Below, one piece after another: positions 3,243 through 42,700 of a DNA stretch of 64,000 nucleotides. The first letter of the stretch is position 1. Each line of letters opens with the position of its first letter. The notes below the pieces were generated by a model. That model made no database searches. It had not been told where the DNA came from and saw only the letters and a program-made list of their open reading frames with translations. Both the position numbers and the translations under genes were made by a program. Where the stretch lies: assembly GCA_965218785.1 (NCBI GenBank), contig OZ244650.1:896001-960000 (forward strand). Direction: 5' to 3'. Source of the DNA: Nitrosopumilus sp. (GTDB lineage: Archaea > Thermoproteota > Nitrososphaeria > Nitrososphaerales > Nitrosopumilaceae).

Positions 3243-3364
3243 TATTTATTCGTCCACACCAGTAATTGCCTTTTATCTTTGATTTTTTGCATGTCTAGAA
3301 TATGTATTATTATGCTTATGTGCTTTGTGCATTAATACACATATTCCGATGAATGCGGCGAGGA

Positions 3365-3411
3365 GATTCTGGTGCAAAACAATGATTAGATTACCAAAAT
3401 GCATCAGAATC
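3365..3411. repeat. 47-bp imperfect palindromic repeat
   Basis: GATTCTGGTGCA...TGATTAGATTACCAAAATGCATCAGAATC; same length and ends as the copy at 4942-4988. Confidence 0.75.
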
Positions 3412-4941: not shown

Positions 4942-4988
4942 GATTCTGGTGCATTTTGGTGATCAGATCACTAGAATCCACCAGAACC
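4942..4988. repeat. 47-bp imperfect palindromic repeat
   Basis: GATTCTGGTG-CATTTTGG-TGATCAGATCA-CTAGAATC-CACCAGAACC; near-identical to the reverse complement of 27852-27897. Confidence 0.9.
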
Positions 4989-14888: not shown

Positions 14889-15752
14889 TTGTCAAGATAT
14901 GAAAATCCAAAGGTCAATGTTAATGTAGGGGCGGCCAAAGCCGTCGTAGGTGTAATTATTGCGTTAATCGTAGCCGGTGTTATAATAGCTTCTTCTATTC
15001 AAATCGTGGATGCTGGGCACAGGGGCGTTTTACTTCATTGGAGTGCAGTTGATACCTCTGTTCCTCCTCTGGATGAAGGACTACACTTTGTAGCTCCATT
15101 TGCAGACACTGTTGTGAATATAGAGGTTCGAACACTAAAGTATGTAAAATCAACGTCTTCGGCATCCAAGGATCTTCAAACCGTCACGACTGCAGTCACT
15201 GTCAACTATCATCCTTCTCCAAACTCGATTCATCATCTTTACAAAGAAATCGGTCTTGATTATGAAAACAGAGTCATCCAGCCGGCAATAGAAGAGGTCG
15301 TAAAACAGGTTACTGCAAATTATAATGCCGAAGAATTAATCACAAAAAGACCATTGGTAAAGTCCGACATCGAGGCCGAGATTAGCGTACGACTGACTGG
15401 ATTTAACATCATTACCGAGGTCATCTCAATTACCGACTTTCAATTCTCACCACTTTTTGCACGGGCAATCGAAGATAAGGTAGAGGCAGAACAAAAAGCC
15501 CTCAAAGCAGAAAACGATCTGAGACGAATTGAAGTGGAGGCAAGACAGCACGAGGCACAGGCTCAGGGTATTGCAGGGGCAAACATTGCAGAGGCGCAAG
15601 GTGAGGCAGAGGCAATTAGAATTATCAATACCGCACTGGCAGACAATCCAAATTATCTAGAGTGGTTGAAAACACAGGCCTGGGACGGACGATTACCTCT
15701 AGTAGTCGGCGAGGGTGGAACACCTTTTATTGAAATACCAACGCAGCCTTAA
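14889..15752 (+). CDS. SPFH/band 7 (prohibitin-like) membrane protein
   Basis: N-terminal TM, AG.RGV, EGLHF..PF, SKDLQ.V, AIE.K..AEQ, A.G.AEA. Confidence 0.92.
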   Translation: MSRYENPKVNVNVGAAKAVVGVIIALIVAGVIIASSIQIVDAGHRGVLLHWSAVDTSVPPLDEGLHFVAPFADTVVNIEVRTLKYVKSTSSASKDLQTVTTAVTVNYHPSPNSIHHLYKEIGLDYENRVIQPAIEEVVKQVTANYNAEELITKRPLVKSDIEAEISVRLTGFNIITEVISITDFQFSPLFARAIEDKVEAEQKALKAENDLRRIEVEARQHEAQAQGIAGANIAEAQGEAEAIRIINTALADNPNYLEWLKTQAWDGRLPLVVGEGGTPFIEIPTQP

Positions 15753-16093
15753 TCTCTTTTGTTACATACAAGATACGATACGACAGATAAGACGGTTCTA
15801 GTAAATTTGTGATCTGTAGCACAAATCATGAAATACACATATCCTCCAAATTACGATGATCAGTTCGAATCCGTTCTTCTCTGGCGACGTTTTTCATGAC
15901 ATATCTAATGGAAATCATATTTGCACTTTGGATATTGCCTTTTTTATTCCAGTTCTTTATTGCAGGCAGCAGAAACGTCATACTTGTTATGTTCAGGGTT
16001 TGCGTGAGATCGACTGCATAAAATTCTCAGTTCAGATACAATCGGAATTTTTGATCAAAAACAAAAAGTAAAATGTCCAAGTTTGATATAATG

Positions 16094-16582
16094 CTAATCT
16101 TTTTTACTGTCTTCTGATTTACCGTTTTCTGATTTACTGTTTTCTGATTTACCACTTTCTGATTTACTGTCTTCTAATTCACCACTCTCTGATTTACCAC
16201 TCTCTGATTTACTGTCTTCTAATTTACCACTCTCTGATTTACCACTTTTTAATTCACCACTCTCTGATTTACTGTCTTCTAATTTACCACTCTCTGATTC
16301 ATCCCTGATGGAATCATACATTGCAAGGAACTGTTCAGGCTCGTGCTGTCTGTAGCGTTTTTGCATCTGTGAAATCTCCTTTTCTGAAATCTTCTTTCCT
16401 TTTTTAATGTGAAATTCTTTTATGATCTGGAACTGGGTTTTTTTAATATCGTATTTTCGGAGTGTTTGATTGACTGTTCTGTTGCAAAAATAATCATAAA
16501 GTACAAAACGATATGTCAAATAACCGATTATTCCGGCAATGACGACTAGGGTAAGTGGTATGATGATGATTGCGATTGCCAT
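16094..16582 (-). CDS. Membrane-anchored hypothetical protein with low-complexity repeat tail
   Basis: N-terminal TM; C-terminal 5-aa repeats such as ESGKS/EDSKS. Confidence 0.8.
   Translation of the reverse strand: MAIAIIIIPLTLVVIAGIIGYLTYRFVLYDYFCNRTVNQTLRKYDIKKTQFQIIKEFHIKKGKKISEKEISQMQKRYRQHEPEQFLAMYDSIRDESESGKLEDSKSESGELKSGKSESGKLEDSKSESGKSESGELEDSKSESGKSENSKSENGKSEDSKKD
16098..16297. repeat. Degenerate 15-bp coding tandem repeat
   Basis: Units such as CTCTGATTTACCACT and TTCTGATTTACTGTC. Confidence 0.85.
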
Positions 16583-16714
16583 ATTCTTGTTAATTTACAT
16601 GCTATTTAAAAACGAAGAGGAAAAACCTGCTGGAATCGTGTTTTATCATGTTTGACAAATTTATTCGTAATAATAGTAGGATTGCGATGGATAATCCGAT
16701 ATATTCATCATGGA

Positions 16715-17932
16715 TTAGAACAACCTTTCAATTTCATCATAATGCATTTGAGATATGTCCCATCCTCTTTCTAATAATTTTATAGAGGTTTCACTAGTAA
16801 TACATGCGATGTTTTGAGTGTTTGTATTTTTCATAAGGACGTATTCTTTTTTACATTCAATATCATCTGGATGAATTCCCATATCCAGCTGTTGCTTTGG
16901 GGATACCTGTTCGGCAAAATCTAAAACACGGGTCGTAGCAAAAGATGTCCCGTCAAGTATTCCACTATCGTATGAAATATCCTCCTGATTTATTATCCCT
17001 CTCCACTGTGTGTTCATTTCTTTTGTTTTGACTAGTACTAGATTCTGTTCAATTTTTTTTGGATCAAAATCTATACTCATACGCAATAACCACTTGTCCA
17101 AAGGATCATACTGGATTAACGAGGGTGGAAAGTCAGTATACGAATATCTATTATTAGAAAACTCTTCCACAAATACCGTATCCACTCCTGGAACAAAATA
17201 TGGCAAGTCTGAAAGTGTGTATAAAGTGAATCTCATCTCCTCCATATCTGATGTCATTGATCTAAATGGCAGCATTGGATATTTGCTTGGAAAAGTAAAT
17301 TCAATCGGACGTAATTTTCCATCAATGTTTCCATTCCCGTCAATTTTTGCTTCATTCATGTTGACCTTAAAGACCACAAAAAAATAACCGCCTTTTTGGA
17401 TATAGTAATCAAAATTTTCTTCATCCCTTTCAGTATACACGAATTCATTTTCATCCAACCAGTTTGTCATGGATGAATTATTTTCGGCAGTAAGGGTAAC
17501 AGTACTATAATCTCCGACATCTTTGGTATCAATTATTGTTATTCCTAAATTCCCCGATACCCCCTCCGCTGCCATCGATAGGCTTTCATCACTTTGAGGC
17601 ATTGCAAGCTGTGGTGTTGTAATAAGTTCAAGATCCTTAAAAATATCTTCGTTTGTTTCAGTTATTGTTGGTTTTCCTGGCAGCGGCAAGACCAACCCGA
17701 ACTCTTTTGCTGTGCCATGAAATGAAGGCTGAATTACCAGCGTCTCCATTTTCTCAAATTCATCGTAAGAAATCAAGACCTTTGTATTGTCATCGGGCAT
17801 TATTGTAAGTTCCATCGGTGCAAATCCTGCCGGACACGCGGCAAAGGCAGGGCTAAAAAATAGGGATATGCCAATTATGAATGAAAAGAAAATAGAAAAC
17901 TGTTTGGAGATATTTTTTGAAAAACACTGCAC
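16715..17932 (-). CDS. Secreted DUF2330-like protein with thaumarchaeal C-terminal SP.KQ...G.....I.C motif
   Basis: Signal peptide; FG.V.PLP..P, VG.Y....L, WL..N.F, L.PI...F...P..P.R; tail SPKQQLDMGIHPDDIECK...AC......L.ERGW. Confidence 0.65.
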   Translation of the reverse strand: MQCFSKNISKQFSIFFSFIIGISLFFSPAFAACPAGFAPMELTIMPDDNTKVLISYDEFEKMETLVIQPSFHGTAKEFGLVLPLPGKPTITETNEDIFKDLELITTPQLAMPQSDESLSMAAEGVSGNLGITIIDTKDVGDYSTVTLTAENNSSMTNWLDENEFVYTERDEENFDYYIQKGGYFFVVFKVNMNEAKIDGNGNIDGKLRPIEFTFPSKYPMLPFRSMTSDMEEMRFTLYTLSDLPYFVPGVDTVFVEEFSNNRYSYTDFPPSLIQYDPLDKWLLRMSIDFDPKKIEQNLVLVKTKEMNTQWRGIINQEDISYDSGILDGTSFATTRVLDFAEQVSPKQQLDMGIHPDDIECKKEYVLMKNTNTQNIACITSETSIKLLERGWDISQMHYDEIERLF

Positions 17933-18079
17933 GATATGCTGTTGATTAATTGAGATATATATGTTAAAGTAAAATGATTTAAATGGTTCTATTTAACGCT
18001 GGATCAACTAAATTGAAATTAAAACATCGTCGTAATAAAATTAGAAAATTAATAAAACCTGTTATGGAAGGTATTTGAT

Positions 18080-19003
18080 TTGAGAACTGGTAAAATTCTT
18101 GTCCTTGTCCTAATCTGTATTGTTTCAAGTATTATAATTACGACAATCTCATTACGATATGACAGTGTTGATGAAGTATTGATTGCTCGAGATTTCATAC
18201 ATGAACAACTAGAATCTCAAAATGCGCCAATATTTTTTAAAATACATCCCCTGGAGAACCCTGGGCAATACCTGGTGTCCTACTGCTATGCTGCAGTGGA
18301 TATTACCGGCTCCACGAGAAGCCATCTTATTGATATAATAATTCAAGATCAAATAGTTACTGCCGGATATGTCGATGGGCAATGGGATGTTTTGAAAAAT
18401 TCAGTAATTGATGGTAATGAATACATCGATCCGTCTTTTTGTGATCCTATACTGGCTGGAACGTTTTCAGATTTTTATGAAATTATATTTGATATTTTGC
18501 AAACATTAACAAAACTTTTGATATACACTCAACTTGGAACATTGATATTTATTGCATTTGTTGGAATTGTAATTTACAAAAATTTTATAGGTCGAATTAG
18601 AAGCAGATATTCCCGTAATACCCAGACGACGTTATTTGATTATTCTCTAGGTCTTTCAAAAAATATTGGCCAAAGAATTCCCTTGTTGACAATTACCCCG
18701 TCACTTTTTGGCATCTGTGGCGTGGCACAGCTGTACAATAGGCAGATACGAAGGGGCATTTTTATCATGATTTCGGGGATGATCCTGTTCACATTCTTCA
18801 TAGTTGTTGCAAGTTTTAGTTTTAACCTGATATGGAATTTTCACATTTATGATTTAGATGATTTTCCACAGTGGGATATTACTGAAAACCCTGGACTAGT
18901 CATCAACACAATTACTGTTTGGACATTGGCGTATGTTGTATTTTTTATATGGCAGTACTTTGACTCTAGAAAATCAATTCAAAAGAAAAAAAATTACATG
19001 TGA
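18080..19003 (+). CDS. Hypothetical multi-pass membrane protein
   Basis: 307-aa ORF with several TM segments and a G.AQLY..Q..RG motif. Confidence 0.7.
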   Translation: MRTGKILVLVLICIVSSIIITTISLRYDSVDEVLIARDFIHEQLESQNAPIFFKIHPLENPGQYLVSYCYAAVDITGSTRSHLIDIIIQDQIVTAGYVDGQWDVLKNSVIDGNEYIDPSFCDPILAGTFSDFYEIIFDILQTLTKLLIYTQLGTLIFIAFVGIVIYKNFIGRIRSRYSRNTQTTLFDYSLGLSKNIGQRIPLLTITPSLFGICGVAQLYNRQIRRGIFIMISGMILFTFFIVVASFSFNLIWNFHIYDLDDFPQWDITENPGLVINTITVWTLAYVVFFIWQYFDSRKSIQKKKNYM

Positions 19004-24434: not shown

Positions 24435-25307
24435 TCATAGATATTTTTTATTTTCCCTCAAGTATTTTGTCACAAACCATTTTACAAATATAAAATCGTT
24501 ATTTTTTAGGCAGGACGACTCTAGTTTTTTGATGTATGTTTGTTTTTCTTTTGGCAGAATATTCATCATGGGATATCTGTTCCTGTGCAATACCCGCAGC
24601 ATCAACATCCTTCCGATCCTCCCATTTCCATCAATAAACGGATGTATCAACTCGAATCTTTTGTGAAATATTGCAGATAACTGTACTGGATTAACATCCG
24701 TCTTGACTTTGTCGTACCATTTTAGCAATTCCCCCACGTCTGAAATGACATCTGCCCATGGAGCATACTCTGTCTTCCCCGGATAGGGTGCCACATCTTC
24801 TCTTCTAAAACTTCCTGCGTTGTTGGTGTCTGTCCTTTCAAATAATTTTCCGTGCCAGTCAAGAATCAATTTTTTAGAAATATCCTTGCTGGGATTTAGC
24901 ATGTCATCGAAAATTACTGCCATTTGTTCTGCCTCTATAATATCCTCGGTGGATGTATCTTTGGGTGACAGATGATCCTCCAATAACTTTTTTGTCTGCC
25001 CTAACGTCATGGTACTTCCCTCAATTCTTTGCGTGCTGTAGATGTGGATAACTTTGAATCCATGATGTTCTGATTTGAGGATTTTCGGATCAGTTTTTTT
25101 AGAAAATCCAGAATATTTTTTTTTAATTTTTTCTAACAGTGGGTTTTTTTCATCTTGAAAAATCCCCCCTTCAAATTCTTTTTCCAGTCGTTCTAGATTG
25201 TCAGGTATTTTTCTGCCCAGATATCTTTCATATTGTTTTATGCCTGTCTTGTGAATTAGATAATAATATTTACCATTACCTTTAGTTCGTTTAATTGTTG
25301 ATACCAT
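24435..25307 (-). CDS. Fic-domain protein
   Basis: Canonical HPFIDGNGRIGR motif plus the inhibitory-helix motif STQRIEG. Confidence 0.93.
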   Translation of the reverse strand: MVSTIKRTKGNGKYYYLIHKTGIKQYERYLGRKIPDNLERLEKEFEGGIFQDEKNPLLEKIKKKYSGFSKKTDPKILKSEHHGFKVIHIYSTQRIEGSTMTLGQTKKLLEDHLSPKDTSTEDIIEAEQMAVIFDDMLNPSKDISKKLILDWHGKLFERTDTNNAGSFRREDVAPYPGKTEYAPWADVISDVGELLKWYDKVKTDVNPVQLSAIFHKRFELIHPFIDGNGRIGRMLMLRVLHRNRYPMMNILPKEKQTYIKKLESSCLKNNDFIFVKWFVTKYLRENKKYL

Positions 25308-27262: not shown

Positions 27263-27580
27263 CTAGGGGGCTTTCAGCTCTATTTCAGAATTACATGTGG
27301 GCAGATTGCCTGACTCGTCCCTGAATTGCTGGATTAACCGAATCTGGCGTTCTTTTGGATTGTCTGTAAACTCCCTTTGATATGACTGGGTTTTTTGCAT
27401 GCATTCGTTTCCCTCAAAATCCGTATCCACGTATTTTGTGAATCTCTCTTGCAGGTTTTCTGACTGGCCAATGTATATCACCTCTTTTTTCCTGTCATAC
27501 AATACGTATACGCCGGGAATTGATTTTACAAATTTGGCACTCTCCAGCCAAATCCTCATTTTATCCTCAAGTAACTGCAT
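27263..27580 (-). CDS. GIY-YIG nuclease-family protein
   Basis: PGVY.L.......IYIG.S.NL..R...Y, ending P.CN. Confidence 0.85.
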   Translation of the reverse strand: MQLLEDKMRIWLESAKFVKSIPGVYVLYDRKKEVIYIGQSENLQERFTKYVDTDFEGNECMQKTQSYQREFTDNPKERQIRLIQQFRDESGNLPTCNSEIELKAP

Positions 27581-27851
27581 ACTATGCGATACTTCTACTA
27601 GATATTAAACTAAGGTACAATATACCTGATATCTGACTTTTTTAGCACCGAAGATCTGTATCTTTTGCTTTTTTGATTTTGTAATGTCAAATAATGATTG
27701 GTAATCTTGATCTAAAACAAACCTTGCAACAAAACATGCCTGATCTGAAATAACGTTTTGGAGCACCTGCGACGTAGTTTTGCCCCGTCGATCCCTTGAC
27801 CATCAGAACCGATTTGTACCATTCAACCATTCTGATCTTTGGGCTGCCACA

Positions 27852-27897
27852 GGTTCTGTGGATTCTAGTGATCTGATCCCCAAAATGCACCAGAACT
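27852..27897. repeat. ~46-bp palindromic repeat, left copy
   Basis: 27850-27894 is identical to 28255-28299 (45 bp). Confidence 0.95.
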
Positions 27898-27960
27898 CTC
27901 CATTACGACAAATACAGGTTTTAGAGGCGTAATAGAGAGAGAAAGTCAGTTGGAAATAGT

Positions 27961-28030
27961 GTGGACTGGGAATCGAACCCACGCCTAAGAGGTTTTAACT
28001 CATGATGCTACCATTACACCAAGAGCCCAC
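27961..28030 (-). tRNA. tRNA-like gene (pseudo/atypical; anticodon loop TTAAAAC)
   Basis: Reverse complement: GTGGGCTCTT GGTGTAATGGTAGCATC ATGAG-TTAAAAC-CTCTT AGGC GTGGG-TTCGATT-CCCAG TCCAC. D- and T-loops are clear; the acceptor/T-stem junction is aberrant. Confidence 0.6.
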
Positions 28031-28256
28031 CAGGTTTATTAAAAAATACAAAGTAATAATGTTGAGGTTTCAACTCTAAAACGCGCTAATTACATTGGCC
28101 TGGTTTTCCTTTCTGCCATCAGCCCACAGCTTTTGAAGAGAAAGGAAAACAAATTTTTGTTATATCTGAGGATTTGATGCAGGGTAGGTTGTTTCAACTA
28201 GTAAAAGATTGTCACAAACCGGCCCTGCAATTTTTCTCTATCTGGTTTTATTCCCA

Positions 28257-28302
28257 GGTTCTGTGGATTCTAGTGATCTGATCCCCAAAATGCACCAGAT
28301 CC
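28257..28302. repeat. ~46-bp palindromic repeat, right copy
   Basis: Direct repeat of 27852-27897, 405 bp downstream. Confidence 0.95.
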
Positions 28303-28444
28303 TGTCACATTCTTTTCTAAAGAAGATCGGCCATGTTTTAAATCCTGCCGCATATGCTGATCCGGATTGAAGCCAAACCCTGCAAAATCCCTGATATCAC
28401 AAGAACCTTCATACTTTTAATATTGTGAAAAAACATGATTAATA

Positions 28445-30124
28445 CTGTCCCTTTTAAAAAAATTCCCTGAAGCGTTTACTCCTAGAGAAATTCAAAAAGA
28501 GATCATCTCAGAGATCGAAGAAAAAATCGAGTCAGGATATAAGAAAATTATTTTATGTGCGCCCACCGGCGTTGGAAAATCCCTGGTGGGCGCCACCATC
28601 TCCAGACATTTTGACAGCTCCTTTACCGTGACTGCGTCAAAACACCTGCAGGATCAATACATCAAAGACATTCCCTTCCTTAAACCGGTAAAGGGCAAAC
28701 AGAACTTTCCCTGTCTCAAACTAATGTCCTCTGAAAAAGTTGACAGCCCCGTACAGGCCATGAGTTGGAGACTGACATGTGAAAAGGGACAGTGCCAGGA
28801 GAGGACAAGTAAAAATGGAAAGCAGGTAGTCGAGGTCTGTAAATTCAAACCGACAATCAAGCAGGTTGAAGAAAACACTCAGGACCCGCAGTCCTGCCAT
28901 TATTATCTGCAAAAATATCAGGCCCTTGCATCAAAACATTCCTTGTGGAATTATCATGCCTTTTTTCAAATCATGAAATTCAACAAAAAACTTTTTGAAA
29001 AATACCTTGATAGAAAGGTCTCCATTTTTGACGAGGCACACAAGATAGAAGATCAGATAATACAGTTTGTCGGGTTTGATATTTTTAGCCGCCAGATTGA
29101 TGAATGTAATCTGAATTCTGAAAAATATGATTTTACAGATTTGGATTCGATGATTCAACTAACTGACGATGTTGCCTATTCTTATGCCAATAAAATCAAG
29201 GACATAAAGGAAAGCCCCGCCTTTGAGAATAAACCTGATTATGAATTAATTACAAGCTTGGAGAGGCGTTATGACAGGGCCGCACAGGCAAAAATTGACA
29301 TCCTGTCTGATAAGGAGAATTTCATCGTAAATGATCCCGTAAAAGACCTGAATGGAAATTTTAGAACCATCTCTGTAAAGCCGATCGACGTTTCAAAATT
29401 TGCAAGTACTTTTTTTGACACCGAATATCAGATTTTCATGTCTGCCACTATTGACAAATCCAGTTTTTGTGATAACATGGGTCTAAAAAAAGACGATGTC
29501 GCATTCGTTGATACTCCAAAATCACCGTTTCCAATCGAACACAGAACAATCAGTCTTTTGAATGTCTGCCGCCTCAGTTATGGCTCTACTGAAGACGATG
29601 AGATTAAAGTCATAAAGGTAATTGATGAAATTTTAGACGAGCATTCAAATGAACGGGGACTGATACTGACTTCCTCCATTCCCCGGTGTCAGAAAATTCT
29701 TCGATACCTCTCACCAAAGAACACCAAAAGAATCAGAATCTGCCATAGTAAAAACAGAGACGGAAAGACACAGGATGAAATTATCTCCGAACATGCCTCT
29801 GATACTACGAGTGTTTTGCTGTCCTCCTCCCTGTGGGAGGGAGTGGATCTAAAAGATGATTTGTCAAGATTCCAGATTATTGCAAAGGTGCCATACCCAA
29901 ATTACAAGGAAAAGAGAACAAGGGCAAAAATGGATAAATTTCCCACGTGGTACACATCTAAAACCCTGACCAAACTGCTACAGGGATTTGGCCGTTCAAT
30001 TAGGAGCAACGATGACTGGGCCAAGACCTATGTTCTGGATGCTGCTGTCAATAACGTGTTTTTTAAGGCACAGCAGATGATTCCAAAGGCATACTATGAC
30101 GTTTTAGGAATGGAGGATCCCTAG
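28445..30124 (+). CDS. DinG/XPD-family (Fe-S) ATP-dependent DNA helicase, probable CTG start
   Basis: The frame extends upstream of the called ORF through a Q-motif (PREIQ) and Walker A (APTGVGKS). DEAH, SAT, EGVD and QG.GR.IR are also present. In-frame TGA at 28436. Confidence 0.92.
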   Translation: MSLLKKFPEAFTPREIQKEIISEIEEKIESGYKKIILCAPTGVGKSLVGATISRHFDSSFTVTASKHLQDQYIKDIPFLKPVKGKQNFPCLKLMSSEKVDSPVQAMSWRLTCEKGQCQERTSKNGKQVVEVCKFKPTIKQVEENTQDPQSCHYYLQKYQALASKHSLWNYHAFFQIMKFNKKLFEKYLDRKVSIFDEAHKIEDQIIQFVGFDIFSRQIDECNLNSEKYDFTDLDSMIQLTDDVAYSYANKIKDIKESPAFENKPDYELITSLERRYDRAAQAKIDILSDKENFIVNDPVKDLNGNFRTISVKPIDVSKFASTFFDTEYQIFMSATIDKSSFCDNMGLKKDDVAFVDTPKSPFPIEHRTISLLNVCRLSYGSTEDDEIKVIKVIDEILDEHSNERGLILTSSIPRCQKILRYLSPKNTKRIRICHSKNRDGKTQDEIISEHASDTTSVLLSSSLWEGVDLKDDLSRFQIIAKVPYPNYKEKRTRAKMDKFPTWYTSKTLTKLLQGFGRSIRSNDDWAKTYVLDAAVNNVFFKAQQMIPKAYYDVLGMEDP

Positions 30125-30714: not shown

Positions 30715-33700
30715 TTGAGTCCTGCATCTGCTGCAGTCATTTGCGTGCTAGCCCTCTCCCTCTCTGCCGGACTGGTATTAGATGCACATGCCCAAGCAAT
30801 TCATCAAATATACAATATAGACTCCCTTGACCTCCCAGACAACGGATACCGGCACAATCTGACACATCTGACTGGTAATTATTACGTCTCCTCACACACT
30901 GTAATCACTCCTGACACCACCCCCACACAACTGGATTCGGCAGTCACCCTCAGATTATACAGCATCATTAATGAGCACATCACGCTGATTGGCAGCCAGG
31001 TAATACAAAACAACGCCCAAGACAAAACCCTGTCACTACACGAACTTTCAACAGAACCCAAATCAACTGCCCTCACCCGCGTGGATGATGATACAATCGC
31101 AGTCTCATATGTAGTTGGCAGTACGTCCAGTACCGTTACCACATATGATGTTGATACCGGTTCTACCACACCGTTTGGTAATCCTAAAAGTGCGGACTTT
31201 AGAGATGGTACCAACGGCGAACAGACGCAGAACCATTCTCTAGTAACACTTGATGCAAACAGGCTGCTAGTTGCATATTCGTATCCGAACAGTTCTCCCA
31301 CCGGCTTTATGCATGTCATCACCATTGATCCCAACACCGGTGCCCTGAGTGCCGGTACCCCCGCACCAATCACTGCCAACCAAGGGCTGTACCCGTCCAT
31401 GGTAAAGCTCGATGATGACACGGTGGTACTTGCATACAGGGGCAACTCTGCACATCCATTCATACAGACATTTGATGTTTCAGCTGATAACACCATTACT
31501 GCCGGAACCGCATATGATATCGAGGATAGAATAACGGCATACAACTCTCTTATCCGGGTCGATGATGACACGGTGGCACTCGCATACTCTGCGATTGGTG
31601 CCAGCACATCCGCATCTGTCGGGCACGGCACCATCAAGGTATTTGATGTCACCTCAGCCGGCGTCATTACTGAAACGGACAGCCAAACGTATTACGGTGC
31701 TGCCGCAGACGCAACATTTGAAGAACAGGTACACCTCAACTCGCTGGCACTGCTGGATTCTGACACTATTGCCCTCGCATACAGGGGAGATGCTGCAGAC
31801 GGCTTTATCCGATTATATGACATTGATCACACCACGGGCACCCTGACGGCAGCAGGCATACCATTTGAGCATGACCAGGCAGACGGTTCATTCAACTCGC
31901 TTGTACGAGTCGATGATATCACACTGGCACTCGTGTACGGAGGGGATCTTTTGGCTGCCATGCCGGATTCCACTGCAACCCCCAACAGAATCAAGACACT
32001 TACTGCTGTAGACCCCGGCACATCCCCGCCAGTCATCGTGTCTGCCGTGGCCAATGATGCGACCATGATCGTACTTGCCGCATCCGAACCCCCTGAAGGA
32101 ACCGCATCTGTTCAATACGCCGTTACGGCGGATACACCGCCCACTGTTGTCATATCCTCAACTACTGCCTTTGATGAGACCGCCACAAACACCGGCACCC
32201 TATCCTACACTGCTGAATTTACAGAGCCCGTGACAGGCTTTGATGTGTCAGACATCCGCGTAACTGGAACGGCATCAGGCGGCTCTCCTATGGCATCAAA
32301 CTTTGATGGGACCAGTGATAGATACACCTTTGAGGTGAAAACCACTTCTGATGGAACAGTCCTGCTATCAATTCCCGCAGGTGCGGCAGCAGATGCGGCA
32401 AACAACGGCAACAGGGCATCCGGCATATACGTCATTACAGTCGATACTGCCATTCCCGAAATTAACTCAATAGTTCTCACCGATTCTAGTACGGTCGTAC
32501 TTGTCGCATCAGAACCCCTCGTAGATGTTCCTGATACCGGCACCTTCCAAGTCTCCGACAACACAGTATTTGGCACCTCACTCTCTGATAGAATCATAAC
32601 ACTCACAGTCAATATGCCCATCAAAGCAACCGGGGTCATTAAAGTCACCTACACCGGCTCGAATTTTGCCGATTCTGCGGGAAACCCGCTTGCCGACTTT
32701 ACTGACATGTCCGTGATAAACAGCATATCTCAAGTACGGATTGTCCATGCCGCCCTGGATGAAAACAGCGGAATACTTGAGATACGGTTTAGCGGCACCA
32801 TCCAGTCTGATGAAGTATCCCCTGAAAAAATCCACATCATAGATTCTGATTCTGCTGCAAACAGCGTAACGCTCTCTGATGGCGAACTTGTCGGAGTGGA
32901 TGGGACCGTGGTAACATTCAGACTTGATGAACAGAACAGACAAAACGTAATTCTGTTTGATGTGCCGACCCTTAGTTTTGACTCTGTCGCAATGTCCTTT
33001 ACAGACGGAAAAGAATTCCCCCAGTCCACAGACACATTCAGGGCGGTTCCAGTCACGAGTCTTCCGCTTGAACCATTCCAGTCAGCAGATGACACCATAT
33101 ACAGCATTCCCGGAGTGGAGATAGGCAATAACGGCACAAAAATGTTTATTCTGGAATTAATAGGTTCCGTCTACTTTGTGGAATACGATCTTGCCACTCC
33201 GTTTGATATTTCAACTGCCAGCCGCGTACAATCCGTGTACCTGGGATCCGGTACGGATCTTCATATTTCTCCGAATGGTACAAAATTATTTTTCGCAAAG
33301 GCTACTGACCCAATAACGACATATACGCTTTCCACGCCCTTTAATATTTCCACTGCGACACTATCTGATTCCGCCCAATTTCTATCAGACAATAAATATG
33401 TGAGTGGAATTGACATGACACCAGACGGCACAATGTTGTTCATATATGACGATTTTGCTGATTTAGTATACCAGTACGATCTTGTCACCCCCTTTGATGT
33501 CAGCACGGCCGAAAGTAATGGCACGTTTCTGGTACCTGGAGATTTTACTACACCCATCACTGCCCTGTCAGTATCTGATGACGGCGGACACCTGTTCTTA
33601 CTAGATGTTACACAGGGCATGACCCGATATGCCCTTGCCACGCCATTTGATGTCACTACCGCCCACAGTCCTGAAACAATACTGCCCCCCGTCCGTTTCA

Positions 33701-36700
33701 ACTATGGAATTGCGTTATACGATGATGACACAAAGATGATCCTCACATCAGATACGGATCGCAGCATACACCAGTTTGCGCTGTCAGTATACGACCTTGA
33801 GACAACACATGCCGTCATGGACATACCTGTTATCACATCTGTCTTTGCAGCCCCCGGCATCTACGGCATTGGGGATACTGTTGATATTACGGTGCGATAC
33901 TCTGAGGATGTACGTGTAACTGGAATACCCAAGATGGGAATCAGCATCGGGGATCAAATCATACAGCTTGATTACAGCCCCGCCCCGCCCTCCTCTGATC
34001 TTCTCTTTCAGTATGTTGTACGGGAGGGAGATAATGTCAATCCGCTGGACCATGCCGGAACAGAGTTGATACTCCCGGATGATGGCGCATTCCTCGTCTC
34101 CTTTGAGCATGGCGTGGAAACCTTCAACGCGCTTCCAGAGCCCGGCTCTGCCGCATCCCTTGCAACCTCTAACGTGGTACTTGACGGCGTGAGACCCACA
34201 CCCCACCAGTATCCGGAGATATCAGTTGATACCATAACAGTACAACTGACTGAGCAGATCAGCCTCGCCGGTTCTCCTGCCTTTAACTTTGCCATACGCG
34301 GTCTTGAATCCAATCCAACTGTCAGATCAGTTAGCATGTCTGGTACGAATGCCACGCTGACCCTCTCCGGACCTATCATGTTACACCAGGCCCCTACCCT
34401 CTCATACGTGCCATCAAACGTGGGCTCCATATCTGACCCTGCCGGAAACACCTTACTTGGCTTTACCATGCCGTTGTCGCATCAAGGCTCAGTTGATCTT
34501 GTCTCGTTATTCATGGATGAGGATAACAAATGGATAGAGGCAAAATTTGACAGCATTATAGACGTATCCACCATAGCACCTGCAAACATGCGGATTATTC
34601 CATCAGGCTCGGCGGACATACTGCTTGCTGATGACGCTCTTTTAACCGTGTCTGATTCAGATACGATACGACTACAACTGACAGACGCGCAGATAAACAC
34701 GATAAGACTTGCAACGCGCACCACCCTCCATTTTGACTCTGTTGCGATGCATGATGTGGCAGGCGATCCCTTCCCCACGCCGTTCCACGTGGTATCGCCT
34801 GTGAATGCCGGCTCTGTCGAATTTCCAGCAGTTGGAAACCCGACCGGACTGGCATTCTCCAATGACGGGCGCAAGATATTCCTATCTGATGGCGGCTCAC
34901 ACATCATATCAGAGTATTCGCTGCCCGTCCCCTTTGTCCTGACACAGGCGACGTTTGTGAGCTCACTTGATGTGGACTCTTATGCCGGCGATAACTACCA
35001 GGTCGTCTTTTCTGATGACGGGCTCAAGATGTTTGTTTCAGCACGCTTTGGCGGCATTGTCGAGCATTCGCTATCCGCACCGTTTACACTATCAACTGCC
35101 ACGTTTGTACGCGAGTCTGCTGGAATCATATCTGATACCACTACGGCCTCTGAAGGACTGACATTCTCCGGTGACGGCAGCAGCATGCTTGTAACAACTG
35201 ACCGTGACGGTATTGTTATGGGCCAGTTTGACCTTCCAGTACAGTTTGATCTGGCCGCATTTAATCGCGGCTTCCTCCTGGATCTGAGTGAGGATATCAC
35301 AAGCCCGGTACAGGTGATAATATCCGATGATGAAAACAGGGTGCTCATTTTGGACTCTAGTAATGACACAGTTCACACATACAACAACCAGAGGCCCGAC
35401 ATACCATTTGATATACAGAATCTGATTCATGCCGGAACTGCCACGCTGGAGGGGACGGATATAGATCCCAGGACAATGACGTTCTCCGGTGACGGTCTTG
35501 ATCTGTTTGTAGGGGATGTCTTCGGCGATGGGAAGGTAAGGCAGTACTCCCTTGCCACATTCGAATTATACGTGGATCCCGTGTGTGCAGGAGACCAGAC
35601 AGTCGTTGGCGGTGTATGTGTAGACCCCGTATGCGTCGGTGACCAGGTCCTGACCGGCGGTGTATGTGTAGAGCCCACATGCATCGGTGACCAGGTCTTG
35701 ACTGGCGGCATGTGCGTGGAACCAACATGTATCGGTAATCAAGTTTTAACTGGCGGCATGTGCGTGGACCCGACATGTTCTGCATCATCCATCCTGGCTG
35801 CCGGCATCTGCCGGGATGAAGTCGATGACTATCTGCGTCTGGCATCATTTGATCCGAATTCGGGAACATTCTCCCTCACCTTTGAAATTGTCATCGATAA
35901 TGACACCATTGATCCTGCAAAATTCCAGATCCGAGAATATGATACTGTCTCGGGGGTGACCCTCTCCGCTGCCGAGCTTGTCACATCTGTTGATTCCAGA
36001 GAGCTGATCTTTACGCTGACTGATACAAACAGGCAGACCGTATCGGGGTATCTCAGACCGACTGTATTCCTTGAAACATCTGCAGTAACTGATGCCAATG
36101 GAAATACATTTCCGACATCCAGTGACATTAGCAACGCGGTGGAGCTAAAGATACTCTCACTTGATACCATACTTGGCGAACTGCCGGTGTTTGGGGACAT
36201 TGAGTTCTCCTTTGATGGAAATACTTTGTACATCGTTGAGAGATACAACACGATAGAGACGAGAGAGATGAGAGACCAGCTGTCCCAGTTCTCGCTGGAC
36301 GCACCGTTTGATGTTGAAGATCCGACTGAGATGGGAACCACCTCGCTTGAGGCCCAGAACAGATTTCTGCGCGATATAGAGCTATCCAATGACGGAACAA
36401 GCATGTTCATACTAGATGATGAGAACGGCATATACGAGTATTCACTGTCTACACCCTTTGACACGTCCTCGCCGACCCATGTGAGGACGTTTGCAGCAGG
36501 TGCCAGTTTACAGACTCCGCGCGGAATGGATTTTTCTGCTGACGGCATGGATTTGTTTGTAATTGAGGCCAGATCAGACATTGTAACGCATTACTCGTTG
36601 ACTGCCCCCTTTGACATACGGTCACCAACCGAGGTCAGCAATTACTCCATAGCAGACAGGGAGAGTAAACCGCTAGATGTAGAGATCTCCGAGGATGGAC

Positions 36701-39700
36701 GAGAGATGTTTGTGCTGGGATCACAGGCCAACAGCGTAATCCAGTATGGCATGTCCGCCCCCCTTGATCTTAGCACTGTCACATATAGGCATTCTTTAAC
36801 TCCACACCCCTTTGACGTACTGTCCCGCGGAATAGAGTTCTCCCCTTCCGGTGACAGAATGTACTATCTGGGAGACGCACTTAACAATCTGCACCAGTAC
36901 TCCCTCAACACGTTTGATATTGGAGTTTGCGAGGGATCCCAGACAATCGTTGACGGGATATGCATGGATCCCACGTGTACCGGAGACCAGACCATTGCAG
37001 GCGGCATGTGCGTGGACCCCGTGTGTGCCGGAAACCAGATGGTCCTTGACGGGGTATGCATGGATCCGACATGTATCGGGGATCAGATGACCATCGGCGG
37101 CATGTGCGTGGACCCCGTGTGCATCGGGGATCAGAGCGTCGTTGAAGGGATGTGCATGGATCCCGTGTGCCCTGCAAACGAACACGGGATTGGAGGAGTA
37201 TGTATCAGCATTGAGATCGTTTTGGATTCTGTGACCCTGAACTATTCCACGGGGAGGATGTTTATGATATTTAGCGATATAATCGATCATGCCAGCATCA
37301 CCCCTGCAAAAATCCACATTATGGGTACGGGCGGCGATTCTGAGGATATCGCACTCTCTGCAGCAGAGCTAGTCGTCTCCTCTGACTCGTCCGTGGTAAT
37401 ATTTGATCTCTCGGATCAAAACCGGCAAAAGGTCGCGTCATTTGTGAATCCCGCCGTCCACTTTGATATACACTCGCTCTCGAGTCTGGACCGTAAAATG
37501 TTCCCCGTCGCATTTGAGCTGTCTGAGCTGTCCCTTGCAGACTCTGTTGATATTGATGATCCTGACGATCCTGACCGGTCTGCGTTAACTCTGGGGGATG
37601 CGACATTCTCTAATGACGGCAGTACCATGTTTGTAACGCAGACAGATGATTACAAGATATACCAGTATGCGCTCTCCGTACCATTTGATGTTGGCACCTC
37701 CATGCTTGTATCATCCTTTGTATTTTCAAACAGTTTGACACCAGAAGCAGTGGACTTTGATGATGACGGTACAACGATGTTTGTGCTGCAGACAGATTCT
37801 GGCACGGCGACTGCAGGCGTATACCCGTACACCCTGTCTACCCCGTTTGACATATCTACAATAGAATCCCCCCTCGTAAACCCGAGCGGATTCTCAGTAT
37901 CTGACCAAAGCAGCTCTGCCACGGGCCTGGCGTTTTCAGGTAACGGAACTGGCATGTTTGTAGTGGGGACCGGTGATGGAAAAATATACTGGTACTCGTT
38001 GACTGCACCCTTTGACATATCCACACCGATGTTTGCAGGCAGTTCCGCTGCACCCTTTGATGGCGGTGTCGATATCACGGGCCTGGAATTCTCTGATGAT
38101 GGAAATACAGTGTTTGTAGCAGACTCTGATAATGACGAGATAGACCTGTATGCCCTGACTGCACCCTTTGACATATCCGCACCGGTGTACCTGCGTTCCC
38201 TGGGCATCTCAGAGGATGACACCCCGGCAGACGTTTATTTTTCCACGGATGCCAGCGCCCTGTTTGTAACAGGCTCCCAAACTGACAGGGTATACCGGTA
38301 TGATCTGAGTGTTTCATATGACGTGCCTGGCTGCGGAGAGGATAGTTCATGTACTGGTTCATCCCTTGATATCCTCTCTGCAGTATGGCGGGATCCCGAC
38401 GAGTCTGATACTGTCTTATCAGACGGCGATGAGCTGAGCATCACGTTTAACCAGGTTACTGACATGGCGGGATCTCAGGTGCTCTCAAAGTCAGTCCTTG
38501 ATGCAATCTTTGAGTTTGGGGGGACGCTTGGGGCAGATTACACCGGCGTGTGGTCTGATGCCAGAACGCTTGTAATTACCGTAATTGACTCGACTGGCGG
38601 TGATGCGGCGGTGGGTGATACCATCTCGCCGTTTAGGGGGACGGCATTCATATACAGCCTTGATACTGCGGGCGGAACCGCATTTTTCCGTCCTGCCGAA
38701 GTTGCAACAAACTCCACGGGGCACATCTTTGTTGCAGACTTGAACAACGTCCAGATATTTGATCCGGATGGAACGTATGCCGGAGCACTTGACACCGCGG
38801 GCGGAACCGCATTTTCACGTCTTGCCGGCATTGCAACAAACTCCACGGGGCACATCTTTGTAGCTGATGACGGACTCAACCTGGTCCGGATATTTGATCC
38901 CGATGGAACGTATGCGGGAGCCCTTGACACCGCGGGCGGTCAGACGTTCAGGGTGCCTGCAGCCGTTGCAGTGGGACCCGATGACAGGATCTACGTCAGC
39001 GATACTGACGCTAGCAACGTAGACAAGCGAGACCGGCGCAACGTCCAGATATTTGATCCGGACGGAACGTATGCCGGAAGACTTGCCACCACTGTCAGCA
39101 CAGAATTTGACACACCCCTGTCTGTTGCAACAAACTCCACGGGGTACGTCTTTGTGGCAGACAGTGGCAATGATGATATCCGCATATTCCATCCGGACGG
39201 GAGAAACATTGCCAATATAGACGCAACCGGCCAGAGCGGCTCCTCAAGTCCTATTGCAGTCGCCACAAACTCCACGGGGCACATCTTTGTATCATTTGCA
39301 AACGTTGGTGCTGCTGCTGACAGCATCGAGATATACACGGGCTCTGGCGTGTACATCGAGGATCTGCCCCTGAGAAACGTGGATTTTGGACGGGCGTCGG
39401 GGATTGCAGTGAACCCCGATGATCGGCTGATCATCGTTGATTCCCAAAACAACGAGGTGTATGTCTTTGGCCATCAGATAATATACTCTGATACGGGACT
39501 GCAGCAGTTCGCCTCTGACGCAGATACCTCCGGCAACTTTGGAATACTTCGCCCGACTGTATCTGTAACATCCGATGTACTCCCGGGTGCTACTACCGCA
39601 CTTGACACGGTAGGATTCACCGTGGTATTCAGCGAGGAGGTTACCGGATTTGATGCGTTAGATATAGCAGTAACTGGTATGGCGCAGGCCGCAGTCGTTC

Positions 39701-42700
39701 CATCAAGCTTTGATGGTGCTGCCAACCCGACATTCACCTTTGACGTGCTGGCAACTGCTGACGGGGAGATGACAGTCTCTGTTCTGCCGCTTGCTGCAAG
39801 TGCGACTAGCTCCGGCAATGCCAACCTTGCATCAAACGATTATACCATAACCGTAAACACGTCTGACCCAACTGTAACCATATCCTCCTCTACCCGGGAC
39901 GGCTCTGTTATACCATCAAACCTTGTCTCCTACAGGGTCACCTTCAGCGAGGAGGTCACCGGATTTGATGCCGAAAACGTTGCAATAACCGGAGGCGCGC
40001 AGGCAAAAGTTGTATTATCAAGCTTTGATGGTACTGCCAACCCGGTATTCACCTTTGATGTACTGGTGTCTGCTGATGGGGTGATGACTCTGTCAATACC
40101 TGCAAATGTTGCAACTGCCGCTGCCACAGGTCGCACCAATGTCGCATCAGCCGAGTACACCGTAACAATAATCACGTCAAACCCGACTGTGACGGTATCC
40201 TCAGTCGTTGACAGCGGGGCTAGTACCAACCTGCGCCAAATACTGTACACTGTGACATTCAGCGAGGAGGTCGCCGGATTTACAGCATCAGACGTTGTAG
40301 TAACCGGTTCGGCAGGAGCCACAGTTGACGGGTCAAGCTTTTTTGATGCGCTCAACCCCGTATTCACCTTTAACGTACTGGCAACTGCAAGCGGACAGGT
40401 AACAGTGTCGATTCCGTCTGGCGCTGTAAATGCAGCAGTCTCCGGCAATGCCAACACCGCGTCAGCTGAGCATTCCATAACAGTCGACCTGACAAACCCG
40501 ACTGTGACGGTATCCTCAGTCGTTGATAACGGGGCAAGTACCAACCTGCGCCAAATACCGTACACCGTGAGATTCAACGAGGCAGTTACCGGATTTGCAG
40601 CATCAGATGTGGCAATAACTGGCACGGCGCAGGCAGTCGTTAACGAGTCAAGCTTTGATGGTACTGCCAACCCGTCATTCACCTTTGATGTGACGGTATC
40701 TTCAGACGGGCAACTAACAGTATCCATACCTGAAGGCGCTGCAAACGAATCCGACTCTGGCAATCCCAACATTGCGTCAGCCGAGCATACGATAACTGTG
40801 GATACGTCCGGCCCGACTGCAACGGTATCCTCAGTCGTTGACAGCGGGGCAAGTACCAACCTGCGCCAAATACCCTATACTGTGATCTTTGGCGAGGCAG
40901 TTACCGGATTTGAAGCATCTGATGTCACGGTAACTGGAACTGCAACTGAAACCGGCGGCTTCATTGTGTCGCACTTTACATCTGTTGGCGGCTCCGTGTA
41001 TACATTTGATGTTGAAATTATCAGTAATGGAACTGTATCAGTATCCGTTGCTGGGAATGAGGTGGTAAACCTGGCAGGCAACGGCAATACTCACTCTAAC
41101 ACGCACACAGTTACAGTTGACACGGTACCAGTCAAGATACTCTCTGCAGTATGGATGGATCCCGACGACCTTGACTTTGTCTTGTCTGACGGTGATGAAC
41201 TTAGCATCACCTTTGATCATGTTACTGACATGGCAGGACTTTCGGTGCTGACAAAGCACGAGATAAATTCCATCTTTGAGTTTGGGGGGACGCTTGGAGC
41301 CAACTATACCGGTGTGTGGTCTGATGATGCCAGAACGCTTGTAATTACCGTAATTGACTCGACTGGCGCTGATGCTGAGATCGGCGATACTGTCTCGCCG
41401 TTTAGGGGAACCACCTACATACGCAGCCTTGATACCACGGGCGGAACAGCATTTTCGCTGCCTGCCGGAGTTGCAACAAACTCCACCGGATACTCCTTTG
41501 TTGTAGATTTTACCAACCGCAACGTCCAGATATTTGATCCCGATGGAACGTATGCCGGACTCCTTTACACCGCAGGCACAGGCGAAGTTCCACGTCTTGC
41601 CGGCATTGCAACAAACTCCACGGGGCACATCTTTGTAGCTGATGACGGACTCAACCTGGTCCGGATATTTGATCCCGATGGAACGTATGCGGGAGCAGTC
41701 CTTGACACCGCGGGCGGTCAGACGTTCAGGGAGCCTGCAGCCGTTGCAGTAGGACCTGATGACAGGATCTACGTCAGCGATACTGACGCTAACAACGTAG
41801 ACAAGCGAGACCGGCGCAACGTCCAGATATTCCATCCGGATGGAACGTATGCCGGAAGACTTGCCACCACCGTCGTCACCGAATTTGATGATCCCGTATC
41901 CGTTGCAACAAACTCCACGGGATTCGTCTTTGTGGCAGACGCCGGCAATGATAACATCAGGATATTTCATCCGGACGGAGGGGTAAACATTGCCAGTATA
42001 GACACGACAGGCCCGAATGCCTCTTCTAGTCTGAGGGCGGTCCTCACAAACTCCACGGGGCACATCTTTGCGGCATACAGCGGCGGCGGCGGCGACAATG
42101 CTGATATCATCCAGATATACACGGGTTCCGGCGCATACATCGGGGATCTGCCTTCCGGGGATGTGGGCTTTGGAAACGTGCTGGGGCTTGCAGCGACTGG
42201 TAATGACCAGTTGATCATATCTGATGCCCAAGCTGATGCCGTGTATGTCTTTGGCCATCAGGTGCTGTACTCTGATACTGGATTACGGCAGTTTGCGTCT
42301 GCCACAGATACCTCCGGCAACTTTGGAACGCAGCCAGTCGTGACTGGCATATCTGCAACGGATGGCATCTACACCACGGGCCAGGTCATTGCAATTACCA
42401 TGATATTTAGCGAATCAGTAACCGTATCTGATAAACCGCAGTTATTCCTGGAGACTGGTGACACTGATGCAACAGCAGTCTATGACTCCGACTCGTCGTC
42501 TGGAACCAAACTGGTATTCCAGTATACGGTTGCAGCAGGGGATAATTCCGCTGATCTCAACTATGTCGATGCAGACCCATTTACACTAAACGGCGGAAGC
42601 ATCATTGCCAATGATCGAGGCAGGCCTGCAAGTCTGCAACTTCCTGCAACCACTCTGGATGACTCACTTGCCGGCAGCTCTGATGTAGTGGTGGACACTA

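Follow-up and report, generated by a model that had tools for sequence, protein, structure and literature searches.

At positions 27844-28309 of a 64,000-nucleotide stretch of archaeal DNA (Nitrosopumilus sp., NCBI GenBank assembly GCA_965218785.1, contig OZ244650.1, positions 896,001 to 960,000 of the forward strand; the whole stretch is called the window here), two copies of a short palindromic repeat, denoted R, bracket 360 bp of non-coding DNA. The locus is probably a non-autonomous module resembling a compound transposon, bounded by R and made by a transposase. R itself is, as judged by sequence identity, built of two 23-bp tips placed head to head with no interior, one being the outermost part of the left end and the other that of the right end of a Nitrosopumilus transposon family. 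Matching 8-mers outside R pairs, transposase-bearing elements with the same tips in other genomes, and a module of the same build that is shared with a distant species up to the outer R tips are the main evidence for this reading.

The repeat pair and other R-bounded modules

The locus comprises the following features (window positions):

27844..27851, no strand: candidate 8-bp target duplication, left copy (CTGCCACA), read directly; the same pattern occurs at six other R-pair modules
27852..27896, + strand: left R, a 45-nt double-ended mini-element, GGTTCTGTGG...CACCAGAAC, family match by BLAST and nhmmer
27897..28256, no strand: cargo, 360 bp, non-coding, no inner open reading frame (ORF) of 60 aa or more
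28257..28301, + strand: right R, GGTTCTGTGG...CACCAGATC, family match
28302..28309, no strand: candidate 8-bp target duplication, right copy (CTGTCACA), read directly and included in the R-pair flank test

The two copies share 45 nt at 100% identity (27850-27894 and 28255-28299) with a start-to-start distance of 405 bp, and two such matches were obtained in 0 of 100 shuffles of the sequence. Directly outside, CTGCCACA at 27844-27851 and CTGTCACA at 28302-28309 agree at 7/8 positions, a match conditional on the right R ending at ...CACCAGATC (28301). An earlier sequence-only reading of the window had reported the identical pair as well as the flanking 8-mers with a right copy shortened by 1 nt, and both are confirmed by direct reading and, for the pair, by repeat search. 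Relative to the 47-nt consensus of R, the window copies have lost one G and carry an A>C change in GATCACC, both changes being private to this pair. The two are mutual nearest relatives among 38 aligned copies, and the same sister pattern is found at three other modules; two shared private changes are expected if one copy was made from the other.

Pieces leading from the flank into R, from R through the cargo into R (27865-28284), and from R into the flank are present at similar depth in Logan contigs of three runs, which stem from two or three studies, include one run that may be the source sample, and break inside R. An artefact of one assembly, a possibility that the sequence-only reading had kept in mind, therefore does not account for the window structure. 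Joints from 27896/27897 to 28263 in these contigs derive from other R copies. In-silico removal of the module together with one 8-mer yields an open frame of 83 codons across the junction on the minus strand.

The flanks were examined at all R pairs up to 15 kb apart by comparing the 8-mers outside the outer tips, with 2004 pairings of far-apart copies as controls. At least seven of eight positions are identical at 8 of the 33 nearby pairs in this genome vs 0.4% of the controls. As one left end is counted twice, the eight pairs represent seven distinct modules (genome coordinates, with left and right flank):

37123-38356: GCGCCTGA / GCGCCTGA (perfect)
15268-18200: CATATCTG / CCTATCTG
631120-631747: TGAATCTG / TAAATCTG
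818525-818617 (or -819034): GACAACAC / TACAACAC
window module: CTGCCACA / CTGTCACA
1073452-1073785: ATCCATCA / CTCCATCA
1414681-1416973: ATTTGTAC / GTTTGTAC

One module shows an 8/8 match and six show 7/8, three of the seven at offset 0 and four with a shift of 1 nt; the weakest cases, those at 818525 and 1073452, involve degenerate R copies. The R copies are in direct orientation in five modules and inverted in two. Outside the window, the cargo consists of protein genes or of other short non-coding DNA and ranges from 240 bp of non-coding sequence to three genes. The module at 1414681-1416973, which harbors three ORFs without Pfam matches, has a counterpart at 92% identity in a second R-rich genome (G041, 1573899-1576151). 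Homology between the two reaches precisely as far as the outer R tips, beyond which the DNA differs, while the GIY-YIG and helicase genes that border the window locus are just 70-75% identical between the two genomes. The module at 37123-38356 is missing in five congeners, in which its conserved flanks lie 40-50 bp apart; a single GCGCCTGA at this empty site is not shown in them, the intergenic DNA being too diverged.

Apart from the modules, 1213 bp of this genome (C1:664115-665327) are 100% identical to contig C2 of G041 (L061 1-1213), with core genes of the two genomes being ~75% identical. That contig is small (8.4 kb), also carries an R copy, and may represent a plasmid-like element common to both or one that was exchanged very recently. 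The genome's own contig C2 (3706 bp) has a 60-nt inverted repeat (1994-2052 / 3265-3324) and shows neither R nor similarity to the chromosome.

R and its parent transposons

A scan of metagenome contigs for the arm pattern returned 28 marine contigs. Most of these contigs have the 23-mer at the tip of an end of ~146 bp and not as half of a 47-bp unit. These long ends consist of the arm, then CATGAAATATGGATCTTCTCCAAATTGGA..., and a second arm-like repeat 122 nt further inward. The left arm of R is identical to the arm in one of these contigs (L097, 23/23) and the right arm to the right-end tip at another (L105, 23/23); because of these identities, R is taken to be the left tip plus the right tip of a transposon family with nothing between. 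At L105, two inverted ~146-bp ends lie 7.65 kb apart and enclose a surface-type protein of 1600 aa, a protein of 300 aa, and one of 537 aa. The latter matches PF13610 (IS6-type DDE domain) with 30.5 bits (cut-off 27), and its best NCBIfam match is the IS6 transposase model NF033587, with 42 bits vs a cut-off of 125.

Related elements are found closer to the window genome. A 5,431-bp element bounded by the same ends is present in a congener (G159, contig C6); it encodes an 87% homologue of the 537-aa protein along with two passenger ORFs and lies between the copies of a perfect 8-bp duplication, TCCTCATA. Another congener (G145) carries a further transposon with identical tips, the transposases of related full elements measure 537-540 aa, and forms of ~170 bp are present in other congeners. 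A solo 47-bp R in G146, likewise a congener, has CCCTTGAT on each side (8/8).

The window genome (1.99 Mb, 40.6% G+C, two contigs, 97% complete) carries R at 46 sites, located by BLAST, a tip-based search, and an nhmmer profile, so that the repeat is dispersed and not private to the window locus. In its 47-bp consensus, GGTTCTGGTGGATTCTAGTGATC-T-GATCACCAAAATGCACCAGAACC, the outer palindrome is perfect over 10 nt, the middle is asymmetric, and GTGATC/GATCAC forms an inner part; a variant has the left arm GGTTCTGGTGCAAAAC. R shows the characteristics of a miniature inverted-repeat transposable element (MITE): it is short and non-coding, has 10-nt perfect tip repeats, occupies 46 sites, and has autonomous relatives with identical tips elsewhere. 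The locus picture given by the sequence-only reading is extended by further copies in the window, and the pair itself lies inside a ~765-bp insertion (see below). The further window copies are:

3365..3411, + strand: R copy, variant with GCAAAAC arm (genome 899365-899411)
4942..4988, - strand: R copy, near consensus (genome 900942-900988)
5119-5152: weak R copy, from the profile and tip search of the window

The copies at 3365-3411 and 4942-4988 lie 1.6 kb apart in +/- order, and their flanks match at just 5/8 positions. With at most one mismatch, the arm pattern occurs in 18 of the 151 genomes of the genus, mainly in larger ones, vs 0/151 for a reversed control pattern; a scan of viral contigs gave 0 matches. 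The exact repeat pattern was found in only one other species-representative genome, a Nitrosopumilus sp. In G041, at least 32 R copies were counted in the loci examined and 39 among the BLAST matches listed. A repeat unit of ~300-370 bp follows R copies at C1:817560-817849, 818618-818990, 819035-819363, and 1289150-1289456, and likewise in G041.

According to the available text of PMC7986276, members of the IS6 family of insertion sequences (IS) make 8-bp duplications and have GG tips with the motifs cTGTt and caaa. The available text of PMC6807381 gives GGTTCTGTTGCAAA as the consensus for terminal inverted repeats (TIRs) in bacterial IS6/IS26 elements, with GG and G7 nearly invariant. The R arms are of this type (GG tip, G7, cTGTt, caaa). 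The arms GGTTCTGGTGCAAAAC, GGTTCTGGTGCATTTT, and GGTTCTGGTGGATTC agree with the bacterial consensus at 13/14, 11/14, and 10/14 positions, respectively, and the variant arm GGTTCTGGTGCAAA at 13/14. Position 8 of the arms is G and not T, with the exception of the window copies (GGTTCTGTGG). The description of the repeat as a double-ended unit of 46 bp with IS6-type tips is thereby upheld.

A transposase with matching ends, which the sequence-only reading had proposed to look for, is encountered elsewhere, as described above, and not in this genome. R was judged not to stem from the genome's own IS6-like genes, whose ends resemble it only up to GGTTCTGTG (~10 nt) and none of which lies beside an R copy. 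One of these genes is intact (464 aa), its right end reading GGTTCTGTGTAGTTG... and its left end being degenerate; the other copy is broken. The element at C1:1216932-1218914 (L051 262-2244) is ~2 kb long and IS6-like, its 464-aa transposase combining a SWIM-type zinc finger with a DDE domain. Its right end, GGTTCTGTGTAG..., is intact and its left end is mutated at the GG tip and at G7; it is probably immobile. A motif GAAATATGGATCTTCT, followed by a CCAGATTGAAAA-like sequence, is found at ~23 places in C1 (e.g. 69412, 80276, 700073, 885386, 1168567, 1957451). In marine contigs and congeners, the long transposon ends have this dispersed GAAATATGGATCTTCT motif as their subterminal part, so that further relics of the transposon family are probably present. 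In a further genome (G002, C1, e.g. 853917-855610; L134 554-2247), an IS of 1694 bp occurs in six copies and encodes an IS6-like transposase of ~404 aa. With ~84-bp inverted ends from GGTTCTCCTGCATCATCGG and 9-bp direct repeats at two of the three copies examined, it is a relative of the R transposon family with another duplication length.

Cargo, surrounding block, and neighboring genes

No ORF of at least 60 aa lies wholly between the R copies of the window, and the longest stop-to-stop frame has 55 codons, in agreement with the sequence-only reading, which had seen no credible protein gene there. The cargo includes:

27962..28028, - strand: tRNA-Phe-like pseudogene (Rfam RF00005, 27.8 bits)
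28029..28064, - strand: A+T-rich stretch (…TTTGTATTTTTTAATAAACC…), conserved and located upstream of the tRNA-like body, near-identical in three copies

The tRNA-like sequence that had been noticed here is borne out by an Rfam tRNA match (27.8 bits, E 0.002 in a 1-kb search); this score lies under the gathering score of 29, and the sequence is a degenerate pseudogene resembling tRNA-Phe. A bona fide tRNA gene was rejected because of the Rfam score, the lack of a default ARAGORN call, and the damaged acceptor strand. With default settings, ARAGORN reports no tRNA in the window, and solely with lowered thresholds does it make one call, with the anticodon AAA. The 3' acceptor strand is four nt short, and there are several non-standard pairs. 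The anticodon loop reads UUAAAAC in the window copy and UUGAAAC (GAA, Phe) in both relatives. An origin of the cargo from the host tRNA-Phe was also rejected, as the sequences are unrelated. The genome is archaeal, with SSU and LSU rRNA of archaeal type and intron-bearing tRNAs, and ARAGORN found no tmRNA in it.

The relatives concern the unit at 27904-28064, which has a paralogue at 80% identity (C1:1344532-1344677) and a relative at 77% beside an R copy in G041. The unit combines the tRNA-like body with a promoter-like run rich in A+T and a tail of 33 nt that is well conserved; the A+T-rich stretch at 28029-28064 looks like a promoter. The three tRNA-like copies are damaged differently and none is called a tRNA, the two relatives being more degraded than the window copy. 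In both relatives, an R copy, degenerate in the paralogue and intact in G041, is near-equally far from the tail, which fits the capture of one R together with adjoining DNA. The cargo part at 28065-28254 is unique in the genome. An Rfam scan over 49 kb, comprising the G041 homologue and the regions of six other modules, revealed no further tRNA-like sequence, so tRNA-like cargo is no feature of the family; genome-wide mapping accordingly found it in only 1/7 modules, and the anticipated enrichment between repeat pairs has to be dropped. The same applies to a cargo acting as non-coding RNA, since no credible functional RNA gene is present: the tRNA-like cargo is a decayed passenger relic without sign of function.

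The module is enclosed by a larger block between two genes:

27263..27580, - strand: GIY-YIG domain gene, left neighbor (Pfam PF01541, 26.4 bits)
27634..28398, no strand: lineage-specific insertion of ~765 bp enclosing the module, from the alignment with congeners
28435..30124, + strand: XPD/DinG-type helicase gene, right neighbor (Pfam DEAD_2 and Helicase_C_2; translation and congener alignment)

An imperfect direct repeat of 16 nt (16-19 bp), CAATATACCTGATATC (27618-27633) and CAAAATCCCTGATATC (28383-28398), marks the block edges. In 22 of the 24 matched congeners and also in G041, the GIY-YIG and helicase genes are adjacent without the block; eight of these congener sites were aligned, and G019 and G023, with larger gaps, stood outside the comparison. 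Since the 765 bp around the module are missing as a whole from the congeners and G041, relatives provide no exact empty site, and the single CTG(C/T)CACA expected between the two genes by the sequence-only reading is not found. Outside the module, the block is unique in this genome, and neither G041 nor the contigs compared yielded a relative of this remainder. One low-depth contig of run X3 joins 27620 to 28394, the whole block being missing.

These data bear on a first alternative, in which the block (27634-28398) is a foreign fragment or the remnant of an integrated element that already contained R, cargo, and R, and the module never transposed at this site. It would account for the absence of the entire block from G041 and all aligned congeners, the imperfect 16-nt repeat at the edges, the X3 contig, by which a related strain may be without the whole block, and the fact that no allele is seen with the block and without the module. 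Nothing, however, marks the block as an element, its remainder having no relatives in the sequences compared, and no integrase lies nearby. The 7/8 repeat directly outside the R tips would be left unexplained, though it fits the family-wide pattern, and a foreign origin of the block is compatible with a module made by transposition elsewhere. This alternative is regarded as unlikely.

The helicase gene (window 28435-28480) is frameshifted directly after its ATG relative to eight congeners. The start ATG ATT AAT ACT GTC ... reaches a TGA, with the same letters in contigs of three runs; the long frame offers no ATG, GTG, or TTG before 28586, and a start there would drop the Walker A motif. Immediately downstream of this gene follows an ORF of 6490 aa (window 30715-50187, + strand). 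A Fic/DOC-domain gene (window 24435-25307, - strand; PF02661, 70.9 bits) is surrounded by several small ORFs without family matches, and an accessory region may be present there.

Alternatives, mechanism, and comparison with known systems

Several observations weigh against, or limit, the reading of a module moved by its R copies. The flank match in the window is only 7/8 and needs a right R one base shorter than the consensus, no empty allele is available for the window module, and the sole variant contig also lacks the entire 765 bp. The tRNA-like cargo occurs in one of seven modules and is a decayed pseudogene. Two of the seven modules have inverted R copies and are no product of a single cointegrate event. 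In G041, the flank test gave 0/23 nearby R pairs with at least 7/8, and for solo R copies of the window genome the outcome was 0/46, the distribution being equal to that of the control. No target duplication is found at the 7.65-kb element of L105 or at the G145 transposon, one of two congener transposons. A homologue of the 537-aa transposase was found neither in this genome nor in G041, and the scores of the transposases against IS6 models are weak (30.5 bits for Pfam, 42-116 bits vs the NCBIfam cut-off of 125). In addition, the available text of Harmer and Hall treats archaeal 'IS6' elements as only loosely related and perhaps not as family members (PMC6807381). Recombination between R copies may have exchanged many of their flanks. 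Given the missing 537-aa homologue, the unfit IS6-like genes, and the missing flank repeats, the R elements of this genome are considered non-autonomous and possibly no longer active.

Two alternatives concern R itself. R might be a host palindrome resembling repetitive extragenic palindromic (REP) sequences, e.g. a terminator or protein-binding site, with the pair arising by local duplication or gene conversion and a chance match of the flanks. R is predicted to form a hairpin (consensus -8.4 kcal/mol, z-score -3.2), which is just -5.4 kcal/mol in the window copy (z-score -1.4); many copies sit immediately 3' of genes, and duplications are lacking at solo R in this genome (0/46) and at G041 pairs. 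Such a palindrome is nevertheless very unlikely, since the arms equal the tips of transposase-bearing transposons, the flank matches (8/33 pairs vs 0.4%) exceed those of controls, a perfect 8-bp duplication surrounds the solo R in G146, the family is patchy (18/151 genomes), and an R-bounded module is common to distant species at 92% with its edges at the tips. That R is the attC-like or dif-like site of a site-specific recombinase and the cargo a cassette inserted at a pre-existing R is the least probable explanation: the imperfect palindrome with an asymmetric bubble, same-oriented R arrays with short units between (e.g. 816059-819034), and the lack of target duplications at most R copies would suit it, yet no integrase was found among 45 neighboring ORFs scanned or beside the window locus, the R tips are unlike the usual integron core sites, and the 8-bp repeats outside R pairs and around transposase-bearing relatives indicate DDE transposition.

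For the preferred R-bounded, transposase-made module, the following course is proposed. An IS6-like DDE transposase would recognize the GGTTCTG... tips in trans, and two R copies with the intervening DNA would move as a unit, making an 8-bp target duplication. At the window locus, the initial state may have been an R copy ~35-40 nt from an already decayed tRNA-Phe-like relic. R and the adjacent 360 bp would have been joined to a new target, CTG(C/T)CACA, by replicative, cointegrate-type transposition as for IS26, the same event duplicating R and 8 bp of the target. A specifically replicative route is proposed tentatively and given slightly less than even weight. Which transposase acts, the replicative route, and any present activity are matters that we infer from sequence comparison.

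In the usual view, the genomes of ammonia-oxidizing archaea are small and stable, and mobile elements are few in them. The present family is patchy and takes three forms: cargo-carrying transposons of 5-8 kb with an IS6-like transposase, forms of ~170 bp, and 47-bp units of tips only. The latter appear to bracket and move DNA, including accessory genes at 92-100% identity between species (core ~75%), and R pairs would be a concrete means, open to testing, by which these archaea exchange genes and rearrange their genomes. If true, the logic of IS26, in which one end-unit moves with adjacent DNA, works with end-units of less than 50 bp and outside bacteria. A more far-reaching proposal, which is doubtful at present, is that R, as two 23-bp tips set back to back and each bound by the transposase, is smaller than any working transposon substrate described so far, and that R pairs are the archaeal counterpart of IS26 translocatable units. 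They would capture any neighboring DNA (defence/accessory genes, a tRNA-like relic) and shuttle between co-occurring Nitrosopumilus species via a large IS6-like transposase from other genomes or extrachromosomal DNA. A search of the full-text literature found no earlier description of R; in the available text of a survey of thaumarchaeal mobile elements (PMC6563490), the term MITE occurs 0 times, and supplementary tables of such papers may list related IS.

Among known systems, IS6/IS26 shares with the R modules the GGTTCTG... tips (GG, G7) and, at those R pairs with matching flanks, a candidate 8-bp target duplication, and the transposases of R-related elements have their best matches in PF13610 and NF033587. 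The arrangement of the window module, a passenger between identical direct copies, is that of the pseudo-compound transposons (translocatable units) of this family, whose direct flanking copies follow from cointegrate formation according to the available text of PMC7986276. R units measure 45-47 bp and contain no gene, whereas IS6 elements have ~800 bp, 14-bp TIRs, and a transposase of ~230 aa with H-HTH. The autonomous relatives of R span 5.4-7.7 kb; their ~146-bp ends contain two arm repeats, and passenger genes accompany a transposase of 537-540 aa. Their NF033587 scores fall far under the cut-off, R resides in an archaeal host, and some R pairs with duplications are inverted. The miniature pseudo-compound transposon of the sequence-only reading is retained with regard to its transposon-tip arms and the 8-bp flanks at R pairs; it has no transposase of its own, and its membership in IS6 is doubtful. 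Owing to the long transposases, the scores far under the NCBIfam cut-off, and the doubt expressed in the available text of PMC6807381, the R module is described as working like an IS6-type element and is not filed as a member.

MITEs of the IS6 family resemble R in comprising both IS ends without a transposase, in their many copies, and in their dependence on a transposase in trans. The examples MITEBth2 and MITEHarch3 have 227 and 336 bp in the available text of PMC7986276 and PMC6807381, whereas R has just 47 bp, i.e. two 23-bp tips and one base between. A target duplication at each copy, as in MITEs, is not seen at the 46 solo R of this genome; the R of G146 is the exception. REPs and bacterial interspersed mosaic elements (BIMEs) are, like R, short dispersed intergenic palindromes that often lie immediately 3' of genes, but the R arms belong to the ends of DDE transposons. 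REPs are associated with Y1 (RAYT) transposases. An IS200/IS605 (PATE/REP-like) origin of R was rejected, with 0 matches to PF01797 in the 97% complete genome.

Two MITEs reportedly also bracket DNA in bacterial composite elements such as integron mobilization units and the MITE-flanked integrons of Acinetobacter. In such bacterial composites, two non-autonomous inverted-repeat elements are said to mobilize the bracketed DNA with a target duplication, as R pairs would do, but these MITEs measure hundreds of bp, and R 47 bp in an archaeal host. In kind, the R modules thus belong with the already known MITE-bounded or pseudo-compound transposons. What stands out is the 47-bp size of the end-units, the archaeal host, and the newly delineated parent transposons with their long two-repeat ends and cargo genes.

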